Assembly (NCBI GenBank): GCA_042218075.1
Contig: JBDGRK010000005.1
Location: 4,716-68,715 of the forward strand
DNA from: Candidatus Nanohaloarchaea archaeon
GTDB taxonomy: Archaea > Nanohalarchaeota > Nanosalinia > Nanosalinales > Nanosalinaceae
Direction of reading: 5' to 3'
DNA: 64,000 nt
The first letter of the stretch is position 1; each line of letters starts with the position of its first letter. Positions 6,086 to 51,595 of the stretch are shown here, in pieces. The position numbers were made by a program, and so were the translations under genes. The notes beneath the pieces are model-generated. The model had not been told where the DNA came from. It did no database searches and saw only the letters and a program-made list of their open reading frames with translations.

Positions 6086-6171
6086 TGGACCGGCCCGGAT
6101 TTGAACCGGGGACAACTGCATAACTGAACTATTCTTCAGTGCAGCGCTCTCCCAGGCTGAGCTACCGGTCC
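6086..6171 (-). tRNA. tRNA-Phe(GAA) with a 12-nt intron at 37/38 (6122-6133); CCA not encoded
   Basis: GGACCGG acceptor stem, D arm GCTC/GAGC, anticodon stem CTGCA/TGCAG with CT-GAA-G, intron AATAGTTCAGTT, T arm CCCGG-TTCAAAT-CCGGG, discriminator A. Confidence 0.95.
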
Positions 6172-22324: not shown

Positions 22325-25168
22325 ATGCCCAAGGATTTCGCGGAAAAGCTGAGCTCTATCGAGGAAAAATGGCAGGAGAGATGGAGGGAAGAAAAACTGT
22401 TCGAGGCGGAGCCTGATGAAGACAAAGAGAAATTCTTCATAACTGCTGCATATCCCTACCCGAGCGGAGGCATGCATGTCGGGCACGTCCGGACATACAC
22501 ATTTCCTGATGTATTCGCTCGCTTCAAGAAGATGCAGGGCTACAACGTCCTTTTCCCTATGGCCTGGCATGTAACTGGAACTCCGATAATAGGGGCGCTG
22601 GACAGGCTGAAGGAAGGTGAGGAAAAGCAATGGAAAGTACTAACCAACACTTATAACGTGCCTGAAGAAGTCCTGGAGGAGATGGAGAAGCCGATGGACT
22701 TTGCGGAGTACTTCATCGAGAACTCCTACAAGAAGAACATGAGGAACCTTGGAATAGGGATTGACTGGCGCAGAGACTTTACAACGAACGACAAAACATA
22801 CAATAAACTGATAGAATGGCAGTACAAGCGGCTGAAAGAAAAAGGATTGGTGAGTGAAGGTCTGCATCCTACGAAATACGACTTGAAGTCGGAGAACCCT
22901 GTGACCGATCATGATCTTCTGGAAGGAGAGGATGCGGAGAAGCAGGAGTATTCGCTGGTCAAGTTCGAGGGCGAAGACTATATCTTCCCCATGGCGACCC
23001 TTAGACCTGAAACAGTATTTGGAGTCACACATACGCTCGTGAATCCTGAAGTCGAGTATGTGACAGCGACAGTGGACGGAGAGAAATGGGTTGTCTCAGA
23101 GGAAGCGGCGGAGAAACTCGAGCACCAGGACCGAGAAGTTGAGATAACCGGTACTGTGGAAGGCGAGGAACTCGTCGGAGAAGAGGTGAGAAATCCTGTA
23201 ACCGGCGACAGGGTGATCTTCCTACCTGCCACATTTGTGGACCCGGATTCGGGTTCAGGTCTGGTTATGTCGGTTCCCGCCCATGCACCATACGACTGGA
23301 TCTCGCTGAAGGATATACAGCAGGATGAAAATACTCTTAGAGAATACGGTCTGGATCCTGAAAGGGTCAGGGAAATAGAGCCTGTGAAGATAATCAACGT
23401 GGAAGATTATGATGGAATCCCGGCGCAGGAAGCCTGTGAGGATTATGGTATCGAATCGCAGGAAGATGAGGAAGCACTGGAGAAAGCCACGGAGGAAGTC
23501 TACGAGAAAGAGTTCCATACAGGCACTCTGAACGCCAACTGTCAAGACTTTGCAGGCGAAAAAGTGAACTCGGTGAAGGATCATCTGGTTGAGCAGTTCG
23601 AGAACATGGGGAGATTTGACTCGATGTACGACTTTTCAGAGGAAGTTGTTTCCAGAAGTGGTGGAAAGGTTATTGTTTCACTCCAGAATTCTTGGTTTAT
23701 TGATTACGGTAATGAGGAATGGAAGACAAAGGTCCGAGACTATCTTGATGAAATAGCCTTGATTCCTGAGGATACAAAGAAGGACTTCCTTGATACAGTG
23801 GACTGGCTGGAGAGCTGGCCCGCGATAAGAAATTATGGTCTTGGAACCCCTTTGCCGTTTGACGAGGATTTCATAGTGGAACCTCTTTCCGACTCAACGA
23901 TCTACATGGCTTTCTACACTATTAGCCATATAGTTGACGAGCCGGAGAAGCTTCAACCAATATTCTTTGACTACCTTATTCAGGACGAGCATAGTGCTGA
24001 AGAAGTGGCCGAGGAAACAGGAATGGATCTAGAAACTATAGAGGAATGCAAGCGGAATTACGATTACTGGTATCCTCTCGACTGGAGAACCACAGCCCAT
24101 CCCTTGATCAGAAACCATCTAACCTTCATGCTTTTCCATCATGCAGCTCTATTCCAGAAGGAAGACTGGCCTCAGGGTATTGCGAGCTGGGGGCTTGTCT
24201 CCCTTGAAGGGAAAAAGATGAGTTCTTCCAAGGGTCGCGTGGCGCTTCCGGATGAGGAAATCGAGAAGTACGGCGCTGATTCGGTCAGGTTCTTTTTGTT
24301 TGGAAGTTTGGAGCCATGGGAGGACTTCAACTGGACAGATGAGGGAATCACAAAGTACCAGAACCAGCTCAGGAACTTCTACCATAGAACCTGCGAAATG
24401 ATAGAATCCGGAACTCAAAGAGAGAGGAATAAACTTGATAGATACACACTATCAAGGCTCCAGAAGATAATCAGTAAAGCGACTGAAGGCCTTGAAGAAT
24501 TCCAGACACGTAAAGCAGGGTTGGCTTCATTCTTCGAGCTGAATTCCTTGATAAACAACTACAGAAACCGCTCTGACAAAATGAACTCGGAAGTTATTGA
24601 GGCTCTCATTTCGGCACAGGTAAGGCTGATGGCTCCGTTCACACCGCACGTATGCGAAGAACTCTGGAAAAAGCTTGGAAATGAAGGATTCGTCTCCGAG
24701 GCCGAGTGGCCGGAAGTAGATGAAGGTTTATTTGATGAGGAAGTTGAGCAAGAGTACACGCTATTTGAGAATATTGTAGATGATGTCAGAGAAATCAGTG
24801 AAATAGTTGAAGAATTCGATCAGATCAAGATCATACTTGCAGAGGACTGGAAGAGGGAGCTTTTCCGGGAGATGGAGGAAGTCATAGACGAAAGGCCGGA
24901 GTTCGGGGAGGCGATGGGCAGACTTGTCGAAGGAAGAGAAGAGCACTCTGAGACAGTCAAGAGCTATCTCAAGGAATACCTTGAAGAGCCGGGAAAGATG
25001 CCGGAGAGGATTTTCAGTAGCGGGAGAGAAATTGAGATAATAGAGGAGAACGTCTCCTATATTGAGAAAGAGTTTGATGCAGAGGTGGTAATCGAGAGGG
25101 AAGAGGATTCGGAAGAGAAGAAGGCTTCAAGGGCGGAGCCCGGAAAGCCGGCGATAGTGATGGAGTGA
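22325..25168 (+). CDS. leuS: Leucine--tRNA ligase (archaeal type)
   Basis: PYPSGGMHVGH, ATLRPET, KMSSS, C-terminal AEPGKPAI. Confidence 0.97.
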   Translation: MPKDFAEKLSSIEEKWQERWREEKLFEAEPDEDKEKFFITAAYPYPSGGMHVGHVRTYTFPDVFARFKKMQGYNVLFPMAWHVTGTPIIGALDRLKEGEEKQWKVLTNTYNVPEEVLEEMEKPMDFAEYFIENSYKKNMRNLGIGIDWRRDFTTNDKTYNKLIEWQYKRLKEKGLVSEGLHPTKYDLKSENPVTDHDLLEGEDAEKQEYSLVKFEGEDYIFPMATLRPETVFGVTHTLVNPEVEYVTATVDGEKWVVSEEAAEKLEHQDREVEITGTVEGEELVGEEVRNPVTGDRVIFLPATFVDPDSGSGLVMSVPAHAPYDWISLKDIQQDENTLREYGLDPERVREIEPVKIINVEDYDGIPAQEACEDYGIESQEDEEALEKATEEVYEKEFHTGTLNANCQDFAGEKVNSVKDHLVEQFENMGRFDSMYDFSEEVVSRSGGKVIVSLQNSWFIDYGNEEWKTKVRDYLDEIALIPEDTKKDFLDTVDWLESWPAIRNYGLGTPLPFDEDFIVEPLSDSTIYMAFYTISHIVDEPEKLQPIFFDYLIQDEHSAEEVAEETGMDLETIEECKRNYDYWYPLDWRTTAHPLIRNHLTFMLFHHAALFQKEDWPQGIASWGLVSLEGKKMSSSKGRVALPDEEIEKYGADSVRFFLFGSLEPWEDFNWTDEGITKYQNQLRNFYHRTCEMIESGTQRERNKLDRYTLSRLQKIISKATEGLEEFQTRKAGLASFFELNSLINNYRNRSDKMNSEVIEALISAQVRLMAPFTPHVCEELWKKLGNEGFVSEAEWPEVDEGLFDEEVEQEYTLFENIVDDVREISEIVEEFDQIKIILAEDWKRELFREMEEVIDERPEFGEAMGRLVEGREEHSETVKSYLKEYLEEPGKMPERIFSSGREIEIIEENVSYIEKEFDAEVVIEREEDSEEKKASRAEPGKPAIVME

Positions 25169-34901: not shown

Positions 34902-37691
34902 ATGCCCGCACTTGAAAAACTCAAGAAGGAGATCAAGGAAGAAGCATCGGAGAAACCGGATAAGTTCTTCGCGACGGAGATACTGAGGCAGCAGGGATAC
35001 AAGAGGTCGGAGTGCTCCAGCTGCGGTATCTACTTCTGGAGCAGAGATGAGAGCAGGGAAGTATGCGGTGAACCTGACTGTTCCGGCGGATACACTTTCA
35101 TCGGGGATTCTCCCACGGAAGAGAAATTGACCCATGCAGAGAGCTGGAAGCTTTTCTCCGATTTCATGGAACAGAGAGGATATAGCTCCATCGACCGCTA
35201 CCCTGTGATAGCAAGGTGGAGAGATGACGTTGAGTTCACAGGCGCATCCATCTACTGCTTCCAGCCGTATGTTGTTTCAGGGGAGGCCGAGCCTCCCGCA
35301 GATGAGCTGGTGATACCGCAGCCCAGCCTGAGGTTTAATGACGTTGACAACGTAGGTATTACAGGCAGGCATTACACCAACTTTACCATGATAGGCCAGA
35401 CCTGCTTCCAGCCCCCGGAGAAATACGACCGGGACCGCTACTTCCGCGACATGATGGATTTTACCTCTGAAGCGCTGGGTATACCGGAGGAGAAGATGAT
35501 CTTCCACGAGGAGGCGTGGGGTGGAGGGGGAAACCTGGGGCCATGCATGGAGTGCTTTGTGGATGGGTTGGAGCTGTGGAACCAGGTCTACATGCTCTAC
35601 GAGATCACACCTGAGGGATACCAGGAGCTGGATCTCCAGGTGCTGGACATGGGTATGGGCCACGAAAGGATCACCTGGATTTCAAGAGGAACGGAGACCT
35701 CTTACGAGAGCGTGATGCCGGAGACCCTGGAAAGGATGAAGCAGCGAACGGGAATAGAGGTTGACAGAGAAGTGTGGGAGAAATTTCTCCCGTACTCCTC
35801 CTACCTCAATATAGATGAGGTCGAAGATATCGAGGAAGAATGGAAAAAAGTTGCAAAAGAGATGGATATGGAAGTTGAAGAACTGAAAGATGAGATAAAA
35901 CCTGTGGCGGCACTCTACTCTATCGCTGAACACGCCCGAGCATTACTCTTCGCCCTGGCCGATGGCAAGCTTCCCTCAAACACGGGTGGAGGCCACAACC
36001 TCAGGATGGTCTACAGGAGAGCACAGGATTTCATCGAAAAATATGAATGGGATCTTGAAATGGGAGAGGTTGCGGAGTGGAATGCGGAGGAGCTGGAGCA
36101 AATATTCCCTGAACTCCTGGAGTCTATAGATGAGGTGAGGGAGATACTCCAGATAGAGCAGGAAAAGTACAGGAAAGCAAGGAGAAAAGCTCGGCAGAAA
36201 CTTGATGAAGTCGACTCCCAGCCCTCGCTGGAGAAGATGGTAGAGCTCTACGAATCGCATGGTGTCTCTCCCAAGATGATGGAAGACCGCGGCTTCAGTG
36301 TACCGGAGGATTTCTACGCCAAGGTCGCATCGGAGGATGAGTCGAAAGTGGAGGGGGAGGAAAAATTCGATCTTGAGGGAGTGGAGGATACAGAACTGCT
36401 CTTCTATGGAGATGAAACCCGGAAGGAGATGGAGGCGGAAGTTGTCGCGACCAGGAGAGAATGGGTTGTGCTGGACAGGACGGTCTTCTACCCTGAGGGA
36501 GGAGGACAGGAAGCTGATAGAGGAAAGATTATTCACGAAGGAGAAAGTTACAGGGTTTCAGATGTACAGAAGCAGGGAGGAGTTGTACTCCACAGAGTTC
36601 CCGGTCATGGGCTGGAGAAAGGAGATAGAATCGAGGGAAGCATAGAGTGGGAGAGGAGGAGACAGCTGATGCAGCACCACTCAACGACTCATATGGTGAA
36701 CGGAGCTTCAGTTGAGCTTCTTGGGGATCATGTATACCAGGCCGGAGCGCACAAGACGGTGGAGAAAGCAAGGCTGGACATCACTCACTACGAGAAGCTT
36801 TCAAGGCAGGAGCTGGACAGTATCGAAGAAAAGGTAAGATCGATGATCTGGAACGACCTGGATATTGAGAAAGAGGTGCTGGAGAAGTCAGCTGCGGAGC
36901 AGAGGCACGGTTTCAGGATATACCAGGGAGGCGCTCCGCCAGGAGATGAAGTCAGGATAGTCAAGATTCTGGACGAGGGAGGGATAGTGGACGTGGAGGC
37001 GTGCGGAGGTACACACCTTGACTCGACTTCAGAGGCAGAAGATTTCATTATTGTCGGCAGCAACAAGGTGCAGGATGGAGTTATCAGACTTAATTATAGG
37101 GCCGGAGAGGCCGCGAGGCAGTACCTGAACCGGATCGAGAGCAGGATAGAAGAAATATCTGAAATGCTCGGGTTTGAAGAACCAGACAATCACAGGCAGG
37201 CAGAGAGAGAGCTAGAAGAAGTTTTCTCAGTGGATGCGGATAATCTTGTGTCGACCCTCGAAAACTTCAGGCAGGAAAACGAGGAGCTGGCCCACCGGAT
37301 AAAGAAACTTGCAGATTATCTTGAGAGAGGTGCAGAGATACCGGAAATAGATGGAGAAACCCTGATCGAAAGAGCGGAAAGCCTGTTTGAAACGAGAAAG
37401 CAGAGGGAGAAAAAACTTGAAGAACTTGAGTCAGGTCTGGAGCAGAAGCTGAAAGACGAAATGGTTGACCGTGTGATTGAGGAGGAAATACCCACGGAGA
37501 ATATCGGTCTGCTGATACAGCTGGCGAGGGAACTGGCGAGAGACTACCAGGCCTCTGTGACCCTAGTCGGGGAGGAAGGTGCTGTCTCAGCCTCCTACCA
37601 CGAGGATTTCGATGCCGATCTCAACCTTGAGAAGTACTCCGACAGTGTGGAAGGAGATGAAAACTTAGCAAAGGCTTTCGACATTCAGTAG
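34902..37691 (+). CDS. alaS: Alanine--tRNA ligase (archaeal type)
   Basis: RYPVIARWRDD, LRFND, DMGMGHER, FYPEGGGQ, HSTTH, CGGTH. Confidence 0.97.
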   Translation: MPALEKLKKEIKEEASEKPDKFFATEILRQQGYKRSECSSCGIYFWSRDESREVCGEPDCSGGYTFIGDSPTEEKLTHAESWKLFSDFMEQRGYSSIDRYPVIARWRDDVEFTGASIYCFQPYVVSGEAEPPADELVIPQPSLRFNDVDNVGITGRHYTNFTMIGQTCFQPPEKYDRDRYFRDMMDFTSEALGIPEEKMIFHEEAWGGGGNLGPCMECFVDGLELWNQVYMLYEITPEGYQELDLQVLDMGMGHERITWISRGTETSYESVMPETLERMKQRTGIEVDREVWEKFLPYSSYLNIDEVEDIEEEWKKVAKEMDMEVEELKDEIKPVAALYSIAEHARALLFALADGKLPSNTGGGHNLRMVYRRAQDFIEKYEWDLEMGEVAEWNAEELEQIFPELLESIDEVREILQIEQEKYRKARRKARQKLDEVDSQPSLEKMVELYESHGVSPKMMEDRGFSVPEDFYAKVASEDESKVEGEEKFDLEGVEDTELLFYGDETRKEMEAEVVATRREWVVLDRTVFYPEGGGQEADRGKIIHEGESYRVSDVQKQGGVVLHRVPGHGLEKGDRIEGSIEWERRRQLMQHHSTTHMVNGASVELLGDHVYQAGAHKTVEKARLDITHYEKLSRQELDSIEEKVRSMIWNDLDIEKEVLEKSAAEQRHGFRIYQGGAPPGDEVRIVKILDEGGIVDVEACGGTHLDSTSEAEDFIIVGSNKVQDGVIRLNYRAGEAARQYLNRIESRIEEISEMLGFEEPDNHRQAERELEEVFSVDADNLVSTLENFRQENEELAHRIKKLADYLERGAEIPEIDGETLIERAESLFETRKQREKKLEELESGLEQKLKDEMVDRVIEEEIPTENIGLLIQLARELARDYQASVTLVGEEGAVSASYHEDFDADLNLEKYSDSVEGDENLAKAFDIQ

Positions 37692-48392: not shown

Positions 48393-49021
48393 ATCAAGTA
48401 GAGCAGAGAAATGTAGACGACCTTGCGAAAAAACTCAGGAATAAAGCGGCCCTCTACTGCGATCTTTTCAAGATAGCCTACGGTCTTGAAGAAGATCCTG
48501 AGTTGATAAATGCCTATGTTGAGAAAGGCTGGGATTACGAGGTTTTGAAGCCAAGAATCGAGAATCTACTGGAAGAAACTGAAGATATTCTACCGGAGAC
48601 GAGAAATAATTATAGTAACAGAGAAGAGGAGCTTTACAGATTTTTCAGAAGGAAGGGAAAACCTAGATTTTCTAAAGAGTGTAAAAACTGGAGAAAACAT
48701 CATTCCGAAGCAGAGTTAGTGGATAACCAGAGAGATTCGGATACTCTTGATTACGGGCCTTTAATCAGGGCCCGGGCAACAGTAATCACCTTCGCTATGG
48801 AAGCTGCAAAATGGGATGAAGATCACTATGAATGGATACCTGATATAGAAGAGGATGATGACACTGAAATTATTGAGGAAACCGTTGACACGATTGATGG
48901 AGAAGTAGAACCTGCAACAGTTGCATCGCATCGATCAGAATCCCTCCCGCAAGAAAGTTCTGCAGCTTACATATTTCCGGGAATTGACCAGAACATAATT
49001 CTGGAACCGGAAAAGGATTAG
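48389..49021 (+). CDS. Hypothetical protein
   Basis: 210-aa ORF coupled (ATGA) to the YbaK gene. Confidence 0.65.
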   Translation: MNQVEQRNVDDLAKKLRNKAALYCDLFKIAYGLEEDPELINAYVEKGWDYEVLKPRIENLLEETEDILPETRNNYSNREEELYRFFRRKGKPRFSKECKNWRKHHSEAELVDNQRDSDTLDYGPLIRARATVITFAMEAAKWDEDHYEWIPDIEEDDDTEIIEETVDTIDGEVEPATVASHRSESLPQESSAAYIFPGIDQNIILEPEKD

Positions 49022-49042
49022 AGATTTAAGTTTAAGTTATCC

Positions 49043-49120
49043 AAGTTTAAATGATCACCAATGAAAGGTGGACGTTTTTACACCGGAGCATTTTGAAAAT
49101 GACTTAAAACCTTCTAGCTT
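49043..49120 (+). repeat. 78-nt structured element, copy 1 (upstream of tyrS)
   Basis: Aligns with 50226-50304 (29 of the first 37 nt identical without gaps, hand count). Confidence 0.8.
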
Positions 49121-49173
49121 TAGCTCCAGCTTATTAAGTTCCCGCCCCGAATCTCTCTGCATGGTGGTTCTGA

Positions 49174-50196
49174 ATGGATAGAGAGAACAGGAAAGAGTTT
49201 GTCCTCAGGAATACTGCAGAGTTTGTGAAGGAGGAGGAACTGGATGAGGTGCTGGATAAAGATGAACCCCGCGCCTACGTTGGATACGAGACTTCTGGGC
49301 CCGCCCACCTGGGACACTGGATCTCGGTGAGAAAGATGCTGGACCTTCAGAAGGCTGGCTTTCAGCCTGTTATACTCTGGGCGGATCTCCACACATACCT
49401 GAACAAGAAAGGGGAGGAGGAATGGATCGAGGATATGATGGAGTACTGGCAGGCCACCTTCGAGGCACTGGGACTTGAGGCAGAATACACTAAAGGAAGG
49501 AGTTTCGAGGAAAAAACAGAGTATTTCCACGACGTACTGGAGATGGCGAAAGAGACCACGATTAACAGGGGGACTCGATCAATGTCGGAAGTTGCAAGAG
49601 ACGATGAAAACCCTTACATCTCCCAGATAATTTACCCTCTGATGCAGTGCCTGGACATAGAATATCTCGACCTTGACCTGGCGGTCGCGGGCATCGACCA
49701 GAGAAAGATTCACATGCTGGCGAGAGAGAAACTCCCAAAGCTCGGCTACAGGAAGCCTACCTGCCTCCACTGGCCGATGCTGGCTTCACTTTCAGGAACG
49801 GGAGACAAGATGTCGTCCAGCAAGAAAGATACAATGTTCCCTCTGCACGCCGACCCCGATCACATTAGAGAAATTATAGAGGAAGGCTACTGTCCGCAGG
49901 GAGAGGTTGAGGACAATCCTATCATCGAGATAGCAAAGTACTTCATCTTCGGAGCTGATCGAGAGCTAAAGATAGAGAGAAAGGAGGAGTACGGTGGAGA
50001 CATTCACTACGAGGATTTCGAGGCTATGGCTGAAGACTTCGAATCCGGAGATCTACACCCTCTAGACCTGAAGGAAGCTGTAGCTGACGAAGTGGTGGAA
50101 AGGTTTGAGCCGGTGAGGCAGCGATTCAGAGAAGAGCCTGAGCTGCTTGATCCACTGGAAGAGATAGGTCACGAGAGACCCGGATATCTCCAGTGA
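49174..50196 (+). CDS. tyrS: Tyrosine--tRNA ligase
   Basis: YVGYETSG.AHLGH, YPLMQ..D, DQRKIH, KMSSS. Confidence 0.97.
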   Translation: MDRENRKEFVLRNTAEFVKEEELDEVLDKDEPRAYVGYETSGPAHLGHWISVRKMLDLQKAGFQPVILWADLHTYLNKKGEEEWIEDMMEYWQATFEALGLEAEYTKGRSFEEKTEYFHDVLEMAKETTINRGTRSMSEVARDDENPYISQIIYPLMQCLDIEYLDLDLAVAGIDQRKIHMLAREKLPKLGYRKPTCLHWPMLASLSGTGDKMSSSKKDTMFPLHADPDHIREIIEEGYCPQGEVEDNPIIEIAKYFIFGADRELKIERKEEYGGDIHYEDFEAMAEDFESGDLHPLDLKEAVADEVVERFEPVRQRFREEPELLDPLEEIGHERPGYLQ

Positions 50197-50225
50197 TCAC
50201 CCATTATTTTTATTTCTTCCAGAGA

Positions 50226-50304
50226 AAGCTAGAACGATCCGCAATGAAGGGTGGACGCTTTTCCGGTCGGAAGGTTTTCGAATGAACCAAAACCTGTTCT
50301 AGTT
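50226..50304 (+). repeat. Structured element, copy 2 (upstream of serS)
   Basis: 9-bp closing stem AGCTAGAAC/GTTCTAGTT enclosing three hairpins. Confidence 0.8.
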
Positions 50305-50329
50305 AAAGCTTTCTTCCAAAGTGGTTGGT

Positions 50330-51595
50330 ATGCTTGATATAGATCTTTTCAGGCAGAATCCCGAGGAGATCAGAGAATCACAGAGAAAAAGAGGTGAAGA
50401 TCCTGAAAAAGTAGATGAAGTTGTCGAAGTGGATAGAGAATGGAGAGAGAAGCTCCAGGAGCTGGAATCTCTGCAGCAGGAGAGAAATACTGTTGGAGAT
50501 GAAATTGCTGAAGCAAAACAGAAAGGGAAAGACGCCTCTGAAAAGATCGAAAGGATGCAGCAGCTGAAACAAAAGATAGATGAACTGGAGGATGAGGTAA
50601 AGCAGCTTAAGGAAAGACGTGACAACTTGAGATACCAGATTGGAAACTTGCTGCATGAATCAGTTCCCGAAGGAGAAGGAGAGGAAGACAATCCTGAAGT
50701 CAGGAGCTGGGAGCCTGAAGGAGGAAGAAAGGAGGATTCGAAGCTGGCAGCCCACATTATGGAAGAGCAGAATTTGCTTTCCTCGGAGAAAGCGACTGAG
50801 GTGGGCGGAGAAAGAGCCTATTACCTATCACCAAAACTGATACAGCTTAGTCAGGCACTGATAAACTTCTCTATAGATTTCCTAGAGGAAAGAGGTTTCG
50901 GTGTATACCAGACTCCCTACATGCTGGAGGAAGAATCGATCTCAGCCGCAGTCGATCTTGAAACATTCGAAGAACAGCTTTACCAGGTGAATGAAAACGA
51001 TCGATACCTGATAGGGACCGCGGAGCACGCACTCGCCGCAAAGTACCAGAACGAAGTGATAGAAGAAGAACTTCCCCTCAAACTCGGAGGTTTCTCAACC
51101 AACTTCAGGAGGGAAGCCGGGAAGCACGGCCAGCAGACAAGAGGTCTATGGCGAGTACACCAGTTCGAGAAGGTGGAGCAGTTCGTGTTCTGCAAGCCAG
51201 AAAACCACCTTGATATTCTTGAAGAGACTCTATCCAATGCCGAGGATATAATGAAGCAGCTTGGTCTGCCGTACAGGGTGGTTGATATTTGTGACGGCGA
51301 TATTTCCAACAAGACTTTCAAACAGTACGATATAGAGGTCTGGAGGCCTCCACTTGGAGAGTACGGAGAAGTAGGAAGCTACGGTTCGTGCACAGGCTAC
51401 CAGTCCAGGGAATTTAACACACAGTTCAGAGAGGGAGGCAACAGAAAGACACCCTACACTGTATATGCCACTGGATTAGTACCTCAGAGGATTATTACAG
51501 CTATATTCGAGAACAATCAGGAAGAGGAAGGCATAAAGATTCCAGAACCTCTAAGAGATTACATGGGAGGCAAGGAGTACATCAGGCTGGAATAA
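50330..51595 (+). CDS. serS: Serine--tRNA ligase
   Basis: MLDI, coiled-coil arm, LIGTAE, FRREAG, GLWRVHQFEKVE, YDIEVW. Confidence 0.97.
   Translation: MLDIDLFRQNPEEIRESQRKRGEDPEKVDEVVEVDREWREKLQELESLQQERNTVGDEIAEAKQKGKDASEKIERMQQLKQKIDELEDEVKQLKERRDNLRYQIGNLLHESVPEGEGEEDNPEVRSWEPEGGRKEDSKLAAHIMEEQNLLSSEKATEVGGERAYYLSPKLIQLSQALINFSIDFLEERGFGVYQTPYMLEEESISAAVDLETFEEQLYQVNENDRYLIGTAEHALAAKYQNEVIEEELPLKLGGFSTNFRREAGKHGQQTRGLWRVHQFEKVEQFVFCKPENHLDILEETLSNAEDIMKQLGLPYRVVDICDGDISNKTFKQYDIEVWRPPLGEYGEVGSYGSCTGYQSREFNTQFREGGNRKTPYTVYATGLVPQRIITAIFENNQEEEGIKIPEPLRDYMGGKEYIRLE

Follow-up and report, generated by a model that had tools for sequence, protein, structure and literature searches.

The DNA analysed here, referred to as the window, is a stretch of 64,000 nucleotides (nt) from a Candidatus Nanohaloarchaea archaeon (contig JBDGRK010000005.1, positions 4,716 to 68,715). 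It contains the genes for tyrosine--tRNA ligase (tyrS) and serine--tRNA ligase (serS), each preceded by a short element; genes and elements are listed in Table 1. The likeness between the stretches before the two genes spans about 80 nt in a MAFFT alignment. Within the window there are exactly two occurrences of the 21-mer CAATGAARGGTGGACGYTTTT (49059 and 50242), as against an expectation of 0 (100 shuffles). Both copies hold AATGA, AAAACCT and TTCTAG, and TTCTAGCTTT (49112-49121), at the 3' end of the first copy, is the exact reverse complement of AAAGCTAGAA (50225-50234), at the 5' end of the second. An earlier note on this DNA had drawn attention to the likeness, to the recurring motifs and to the complementary ends, and all three observations hold, the complement extending over 10 nt. 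The note took the elements for an RNA of a new kind or a small transposable element. Our own reading is that they are translated, and that they probably sense the charging of tRNA.

The conserved block is a short upstream reading frame, ATG AAR GGT GGA CGY TTT, followed by one codon which is cognate to the downstream gene. The leader of tyrS reads ATG AAA GGT GGA CGT TTT TAC ... TGA, and that of serS reads ATG AAG GGT GGA CGC TTT TCC ... TGA. We call the short frame the mini-frame, its conserved part the cassette, and the cognate codon the sensor codon. The variable purine and pyrimidine positions of the earlier note are third codon positions, the first AATGA is the site of the start codon, and the second is the site of the stop in the frame of the mini-frame (the 0 frame). 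The +1 frame is counted from the second base of the sensor codon.

Table 1. Features of the tyrS and serS leaders and of other loci in the window mentioned in the text. SD, Shine-Dalgarno; ORF, open reading frame; aa, amino acids.
Feature	Position	Strand	Basis
Putative promoter P1, TATA-like TTTAAGTTTAAG, about 30 nt upstream of the ATG of the tyrS leader	49025..49036	+	sequence
tyrS leader mini-frame, 0 frame, MKGGRFYTGAF then stop	49061..49096	+	translation
tyrS cassette core: SD-like AGGTGG (49066-49071), spacer A+CGT, candidate slippery P-site TTT (49076-49078)	49066..49078	+	
Sensor codon TAC (Tyr), cognate to tyrS	49079..49081	+	
tyrS-leader +1 frame, 33 codons open, TAG (49179-49181) overlapping the tyrS start (ATG 49174)	49080..49181	+	
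tyrS, tyrosine--tRNA ligase, 340 aa	49174..50196	+	NCBIfam NF006330, E 7e-121
Putative promoter P1, TATA-like TTATTTTTATTT, about 30-40 nt upstream of the ATG of the serS leader	50204..50215	+	sequence
serS leader mini-frame, 0 frame, MKGGRFSGRKVFE then stop	50244..50285	+	translation
serS cassette core: SD-like GGGTGG (50249-50254), spacer A+CGC, candidate slippery TTT (50259-50261)	50249..50261	+	
Sensor codon TCC (Ser), cognate to serS	50262..50264	+	
serS-leader +1 frame, 24 codons open, TGA (50335-50337) within ATGCTTGA at the serS start (ATG 50330)	50263..50337	+	
Probable second promoter P2: conserved block AAAACCTGTTCTAGTTAAAGCTTTC, its 3' end about 20 nt from the serS ATG	50289..50313	+	alignment of 30 leaders
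serS, serine--tRNA ligase, 421 aa from the ATG at 50330	50330..51595	+	TIGR00414, E 2e-123
Third leader: mini-frame MFHKALSTAPTGEYFVQGGCFIQGGHVLLG then stop, three cassettes whose sensor codons are GTG (Val), ATC (Ile) and CTG (Leu)	59433..59525	-	
129-aa ORF without family	58822..59211		
Cassette-like copy TTG TTC CGG GGT GAA TAC TTT, TAA at the sensor position	62573..62596	+	
AstE/AspA-family gene	62627..63391		
leuS	22325..25168		
alaS	34902..37691		
Topoisomerase I gene, 1215 aa	53555..57202	+	archaeal topA profile, residues 7-495
tRNA, 86 nt	6086..6171	-	Rfam, 56 bits

The same arrangement recurs elsewhere in this genome (an assembly of 1.10 Mb in 40 contigs, 47% G+C). A six-frame search for KGGRF gave eight matches, of which seven belong to short frames that have an in-frame start, the eighth being inside a longer frame. 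The sensor codon is TAC before tyrS, TCC before serS, ACC before thrS, TTC before pheS-pheT (pheS being named by its likeness to locus L047, NCBIfam pheS), GTT before valS, TGG before a four-gene operon whose last gene is trpS, and ATC before a threonine ammonia-lyase-like (ilvA-like) gene, for the first step to isoleucine. The degenerate 13-mer RGGTGRNYRYKTT has 19 hits in the genome, comprising 16 cassettes, one copy with TAA as the sensor and two chance-like matches. Further cassettes are MKGEYF-G before glyS, QGGRV-P before proS, a second Trp copy, single copies for Leu, His and Lys, and a triple Val-Ile-Leu frame. One genome therefore carries about 16 cassettes, which cover about 12 amino acids. 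For nine amino acids the downstream gene is cognate; the Leu, His, Lys and triple copies precede unannotated genes. The upstream regions of leuS and alaS were also inspected and have no working cassette, as the earlier note had cautioned. That of leuS contains GGTGAA-GTT-CTG, lacking the spacer codon and situated beside a TATA box, and its +1 frame is stopped at once.

Allowing at most one mismatch, the 15-mer of the cassette was found in 31 of 41 related genomes. Across the phylum it is present in 57 of 70 genomes, and in 47 of the 49 in family f1, while the reversed pattern, used as a control, gives 0-2 matches per genome. The analysis below covers 132 of the 134 places in the 31 genomes, two in genome G001 being left out. 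An in-frame start lies upstream of the cassette in 131 of them. Short N-terminal anchors served to locate any synthetase gene within 1300 nt, with an NCBIfam cross-check for the relatives' loci. There were 74 anchor hits, one of which (L034, a chance LPDG match with no family) was dropped. All 73 remaining synthetase genes are cognate to the sensor (17 serS, 15 thrS, 11 valS, 11 glyS, 8 tyrS, 5 trpS, 4 cysS and 2 pheS), and no synthetase gene with a non-cognate sensor occurs among the 132 instances. Other pairs of sensor and gene are His with hisS, Pro with proC, Trp with trpB, Trp with genes of the DapE-ArgE type, and Ile with ilvA. In the existence of a mini-frame carrying a cognate codon we have much higher confidence than in the mechanism proposed below. 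The earlier note had staked its proposal of an undescribed synthetase-associated element on further copies and on conservation at orthologous loci. Both are found, and a synthetase-linked family, with more copies in the genome and kept at orthologous loci throughout the phylum, stands; the kind of RNA that the note had in mind does not.

In the +1 frame, the tyrS and serS leaders stay open from the sensor to a stop codon lying on the gene start. The thrS, pheS, glyS and proS genes of this genome have a +1 stop and a start that overlap as ATGA. Among the 69 cassettes adjacent to a synthetase gene, the +1 stop falls within -16 to +11 nt of the synthetase start in 68, with 23 at +1 (the ATGA type) and 15 at +5, and the open length is 61-319 nt. 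Stops in the 0 frame lie 9-75 nt past the sensor and never fall in that interval (0/69); those in the +2 frame do so in five cases. When all 132 instances are counted, the frame ends at the start of a long ORF 77 times in +1, three times in 0 and 11 times in +2, and it stays open for at least 600 nt in eight, none and two instances, respectively. In the eight long +1 cases (seven Trp and one Leu), the protein is encoded in the +1 frame itself. Family hits among these are TrpD-like (L103) and HisC-like (L036), and another of these fusions is the 244-residue protein encoded first in this genome's trpS operon. This operon (L128, G000:C10:46675-50942, minus strand, G000 being this genome) has two Trp mini-frames in series, the second of which is fused in +1 to the 244-residue protein. 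The latter has no family, and its conserved N-terminus starts right after the shift site; it is followed by ATGA-linked genes for an M20 peptidase, an enolase-superfamily protein and TrpS.

A second set of loci was chosen by homology. A scan of the genome contigs with an alignment of 10 seryl-tRNA synthetase (SerRS) sequences gave 52 serS loci, where a single SerRS protein as query had found nothing. The relatives are Nanohaloarchaeota (Nanohalobium, Nanosalina, Nanoanaerosalina and Asbonarchaeum), and the set partly overlaps the genomes of the motif set. A Ser cassette is present at 28 of 50 of these loci, and in 27 of the 28 the +1 frame ends within -16 to +11 nt of the start. The serS leaders differ in length and give two registers, each paired with codon 2 of serS. 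In the first, CTT-GA at codon 2 gives TGA at +5 (14/14), and in the second, CTA or TTA gives TAG or TAA at +4 (6/6). CTT is found at codon 2 in two of the 22 serS loci without a cassette, and represents 24% of the Leu codons of this genome. Upstream of serS in the Asbonarchaeum and Nanoanaerosalina-like families there is a conserved word of a different kind, ATGACAGGGTTTT-NN-CGCCAATCA, about 130 nt before the ATG (L156, L159, L163, L164 and L167), in which the variable bases give TCC, TAT or TGT.

Many of these observations could be accommodated by a leader peptide that senses its amino acid without any frameshift, where, on the pattern of bacterial attenuators, a ribosome stalled at the cognate codon alters transcription termination, RNA folding or the accessibility of the downstream start. 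Such a leader would have a short upstream frame with a start and a cognate codon before synthetase and biosynthesis genes, as is seen here, and it would suit the Ile and some of the Trp, Leu and Val cassettes, which reach no start in +1. It leaves unexplained why the +1 frame, and so rarely either of the others, ends on the start, why the register co-varies with codon 2 of serS, and why the cassette has the codon choices and the next-base rule described below. Folds of the elements and leaders, together with RNAalifold on 30 aligned serS leaders, reveal no mutually exclusive terminator and antiterminator hairpins, and no conserved alternative hairpins, the leader folds having z-scores of +1.41 and -0.25. 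We consider this explanation unlikely.

The pattern of variation indicates that the cassette is constrained as nucleotides rather than as a peptide. CGT and CGC together make up 9.5% of the Arg codons of this genome, and TTT makes up 32.5% of the Phe codons. Cassettes nevertheless use CGY (or TGY, CAY, TAY, GAT), and the Phe codon is always TTT and never TTC. The peptide varies (KGERF, KGEYF, KGDCV, QGGHV, with Q, E, T or R also at the first position) and GGUGR-N-YRY-KUU is retained. The codon before the sensor, which would be in the ribosomal P site when the sensor is read, also depends on the base that follows. It is GTT with 12 of the 15 sensors that start with C (Leu, Pro, His), as against five of the 117 others, the numbers for this genome being 4/4 and 0/12; UUU followed by U, A or G accounts for 112 instances. 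Such a dependence is predicted by a mechanism in which the P-site tRNA re-pairs, since with C as the next base tRNA-Phe on UUU would meet UUC, a perfect match, on shifting to +1.

The P-site codon is separated from RGGUGR by 4 nt. Pairing is possible between GGGUGG and UCACCU at the 16S 3' end (GGAUCACCUCC), the anti-SD sequence being taken from four relatives (the assembly of this genome is without 16S), and the predicted duplex has an energy of -7.3 to -8.6 kcal/mol (-7.3 for the tyrS leader). By the standards applied to sites of the prfB type, an SD-like element is present near the shift codon and the P-site codon is able to re-pair in +1. A functional +1 product or start, which is the further standard, is found in 68 of the 69 synthetase cases and is lacking in 47 of all 132 instances.

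The GGTG of the cassette also suggests another arrangement, of two overlapping frames, in which ribosomes would enter the +1 frame by normal initiation at the GTG within GGTGGA and this frame would be coupled to the synthetase gene, the mini-frame with its sensor codon serving only to modulate that initiation by occupancy. This GTG is in the +1 frame in every GGTG cassette, and it is the start chosen by ORF callers for the fused Trp-regulated proteins (VDAFG.., VDVFG..). It lies just 4-7 nt from the probable 5'-terminal ATG, with no SD ahead. A ribosome stalled at the sensor would moreover cover the GTG and repress in starvation, the opposite of what a synthetase gene needs, and neither KUU nor YRY nor the next-base rule is accounted for by this arrangement. 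It appears to us distinctly improbable.

Promoter-like sequences precede the mini-frame. Across the 132 instances an A/T peak lies 31-45 nt 5' of the cassette, and the alignment of serS leaders shows a TATTTAA box with about 27 nt between its end and the ATG of the mini-frame, a distance that fits a nearly leaderless mRNA. P1 is the putative promoter of this mRNA. In the 30 aligned serS leaders, a strongly conserved block, AAAACCTGTTCTAGATAAAAnTTTC, ends about 20-21 nt before the serS ATG. It corresponds to the AAAACCT and TTCTAG of the earlier note plus the TATA-like box that follows, and the tyrS leader has a related counterpart of AAAACCTGTTCTAGTTAAAGCTTTC, AAAACCTTCTAG, at 49106-49117. The TATA-like boxes after each copy, noted previously as a caveat, are present, and we reinterpret them as a probable second promoter of the synthetase gene, AAAACCTGTTCTAGATAAAAnTTTC probably giving a basal leaderless serS mRNA. 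The serS block has stops in two of the three frames, the sole open frame being +1, and so may also act as a register check which the +1 frame passes. As a general promoter word AAAACCTNTTCTA was rejected, having just 10 loose matches in the genome.

The main reading of the earlier note was a structured non-coding RNA (a tRNA mimic, a T-box-like RNA or a small RNA) with a cloverleaf shared by both copies, to be bound by tRNA, synthetase or L7Ae. In its favour, RNAfold gives copy 2 an energy of -24.0 kcal/mol, somewhat better than shuffled sequences (z -2.0, with 8/200 shuffles equally good), and its GGGUGG presumably resembles the T-box core. Copy 1 has a different fold, at -12.7 kcal/mol, no better than expected (z -0.69, 39/200 shuffles equally good). 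The 9-bp closing stem is seen in copy 2 only, where it lies upstream of the probable transcription start, and RNAalifold gives 0 consensus pairs for the 30 aligned serS leaders. A shared cloverleaf is not borne out by these results. ARAGORN and Rfam detect no tRNA or other RNA family at 49043-50304, and the T-box covariance model (RF00230) has no match in 48900-50450 even at E<=10, the sole hit being SAM-SAH at E 4.9. The variation falls on third codon positions, and the element sits within a short frame that almost always has a start. GGTGG is better read as a Shine-Dalgarno-like element in a translated mini-frame than as a T-box core, and a structured RNA is in our view extremely improbable. 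C/D-box sRNA, K-turn and split-tRNA were considered from the sequence and set aside once the frame and the cognate codon had been seen.

Two structural details may be added. The 10-nt complement between the copies joins the promoter-like block of the tyrS leader with the region 5' of the serS mini-frame. These bases of copy 2 also pair with that copy's own block, as its closing stem, and they are not conserved in other serS leaders. Five serS leaders (L135, L140, L144, L145 and L160) have a hairpin, GGCTCGATGAGAGCC, 30-45 nt past the sensor, which could be a local stimulator or unrelated.

Finally, the element might be a feature of the DNA only, either a transcription-factor site of a synthetase regulon or, as the earlier note also proposed, a miniature inverted-repeat transposable element (MITE). 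A nearly invariant 15-nt word near the promoters of functionally related genes is what a regulon site would look like. A protein site needs no start codon, however, nor a cognate codon at a fixed offset, nor an open +1 frame. A MITE would show terminal repeats and scattered insertions. The copies share only about 18 nt and the promoter-like block, and all lie in one orientation just upstream of, and pointing towards, cognate genes at orthologous loci in most genomes of the phylum (no dedicated repeat search was run). We give hardly any credence to either form of this explanation.

We hypothesise instead that the element is a short, probably leaderless upstream frame with an 18-nt programmed +1 frameshift cassette, a switch resembling prfB that would respond to a hungry codon and act through reinitiation. 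The cassette would be made up, in order, of R-GGUGR (SD-like), a 4-nt spacer ending in a YRY codon, the slippery UUU (GUU if C is next) and the sensor codon. When the cognate aminoacyl-tRNA is ample, the sensor would be decoded and the ribosome would stop 3-25 codons further on, far from the gene. Under scarcity of this tRNA the A site would remain empty, and the peptidyl-tRNA on UUU or GUU could re-pair one base forward, helped by the SD-like contact. The slipped ribosome would then read the open +1 frame to the stop that overlaps or abuts the synthetase start, and termination there would lead to reinitiation at the start and to more synthetase. For certain Trp and Leu cassettes, whose +1 frame coincides with that of the enzyme, the shift itself would produce the protein. 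The outcome would be negative feedback on each synthetase, and +1-fused enzymes made in starvation only. Judged from the sequence evidence, we regard this mechanism as likely.

Several points weigh against it. The instances come from related genomes, which are not independent samples, so the counts overstate independence, and a set selected by motif leans to the consensus. The sole exception among the 69 synthetase cases, valS at L102, has its +1 stop 99 nt early. More generally, 47 of the 132 instances do not arrive at the start of a long ORF in +1, including all nine Ile, 17 Trp, eight Val and seven Leu cassettes, many of the 17 being the upstream member of tandem Trp frames. In this genome the +1 stop of the Ile cassette lies at least 37 nt before the ilvA-like start, and that of the Val-Ile-Leu leader about 130 nt before the next ORF. 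The duplex with the 16S 3' end is within the top 3-6% of random genomic 11-mers, so the pairing is moderate. The synthetase genes apparently possess a promoter block of their own, together with an SD-like GTGG ahead of the ATG, in which case the leader could only add to a basal level. Lastly, since GGTG puts a GTG in the +1 frame, independent initiation there is conceivable.

Some further cassettes have unusual layouts. In the third leader of the window, three 18-nt cassettes stand back to back (59495-59442), and their shared +1 frame ends at the TAG at 59344-59342, ahead of the 129-residue ORF; a 499-residue ORF with a LAGLIDADG domain follows. This repetition speaks for the cassette being a module, as the proposed mechanism has it. 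Tandem Ile-Leu or Val-Leu cassettes in one mini-frame (for example MRKGGRFISTKGGRVLQLDLQ, then stop) also occur at L022, L043, L064, L059, L083 and L101. Those of L043 and L064 precede a 376-residue protein without a Pfam or NCBIfam family, and Leu cassettes are also found before proteins of 578 to 626 residues without a family. The cassette-like copy at 62573 in the window has TAA at the sensor position, which is the layout of prfB. Its +1 frame ends as ATGA on the start of the AstE/AspA-family gene, and a TATA-like box lies only 4-13 nt upstream. A stop codon as sensor was considered for the phylum. A search for TTT-TRR gave nearly all TGG (Trp) plus four TGA places (two of them L185 and L190), all in unrelated contexts without coupling and probably due to chance, and the idea was dropped.

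Other features of the genome were noted in passing. The only tRNA in the 64 kb, whose anticodon was not named by ARAGORN, may contain an intron. The topoisomerase I gene matches the archaeal topA profile only in part, the rest being an extension or insertion. A release-factor-like ORF elsewhere in the genome (G000:C23:18146-19141, minus strand) reads ...AGGQ and then CLDPDTMVQMSDG..., which looks, by eye, like an intein inserted at the GGQ motif.

The closest known system, by analogy, is the +1 frameshift site of bacterial prfB (release factor 2), AGG GGG UAU CUU UGA C. There too an SD-like element lies a few bases before the shift, the P-site NUU is able to re-pair, and a slow A-site codon sets the output. 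In both, A-site decoding would report on the regulated product's own substrate or activity, to give negative feedback. The present cassette differs in having a sense codon in the A site, specific to the gene, in its archaeal host, in using mostly termination and reinitiation rather than in-frame fusion, and in its number, with about 16 per genome for about 12 amino acids. Bacterial leader-peptide attenuation (trpL, hisL, thrL, ilvL, and pheM before pheST) likewise has a short leader frame before amino-acid or synthetase genes, where cognate codons sense charged tRNA. Here there is a single sensor codon and no terminator or antiterminator hairpin, and the information resides in the frames and the stop/start overlap. 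T-boxes (RF00230) are analogous sensors of charging, which equip each synthetase or biosynthesis gene with one specifier codon. The elements described here have no Stem I, specifier loop or antiterminator, and their codon would be read by the ribosome rather than bound by free tRNA. To our knowledge, neither T-boxes nor classical attenuators have been reported in archaea.

Frameshifting of the prfB type is treated in a review (PMC5009743), passages of which also describe +1 shifting at hungry or rare codons (Gallant's work in E. coli; yeast Ty1 CUU-AGG-C, ABP140 and EST3), where a slow sense codon in the A site provokes a slip in the P site. Those cases are constitutive or experimental, and the same 2016 review states, in the passage concerned, that no natural frameshifting of the starvation type with a starvation-specific product is known. 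Mycobacterial short ORFs with Cys codons, as outlined in part of a preprint (bioRxiv 10.1101/834739), resemble the present system in being leaderless mini-frames that sense one amino acid before operons; they differ in having several Cys codons, in acting by stalling and attenuation, in belonging to a bacterium, and in lacking a frameshift cassette. Termination-reinitiation at overlapping stops and starts is established in haloarchaea, as in Haloferax volcanii, where coupling needs overlaps or very short gaps (PMC6728339, PMC10666635). As in our clusters of stop and start, ATGA overlaps or close pairs pass ribosomes to the next gene; here, the upstream frame would be reachable only after a change of frame. 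A passage of a 2021 review (PMC8211752) counts a single programmed frameshift in all Archaea. No published description of this sensor system was found in the full-text literature, subscription-only papers being outside its coverage.

We lean towards the view that the Nanohaloarchaeota share a phylum-wide regulon built on one programmable 18-nt cassette and serving around a dozen amino acids. In each leader one hungry codon would read the charging of one tRNA, and a +1 slip would couple this to the cognate synthetase or make enzymes that are otherwise untranslatable. How archaea control the levels of their synthetases and sense a shortage of amino acids is a largely unknown field. If the proposal is true, the cassette would be an archaeal functional counterpart of the bacterial T-box system, and the first natural case of hungry-codon frameshifting used as a sensor, by a mechanism that is simple and predictable from sequence. 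The 18-nt module might then serve as a biosensor, its specificity being switched to whichever amino acid is wanted. The mechanism would also account for genes in tiny archaeal genomes that appear start-less or 'broken', such as the Trp-gated +1 fusions.

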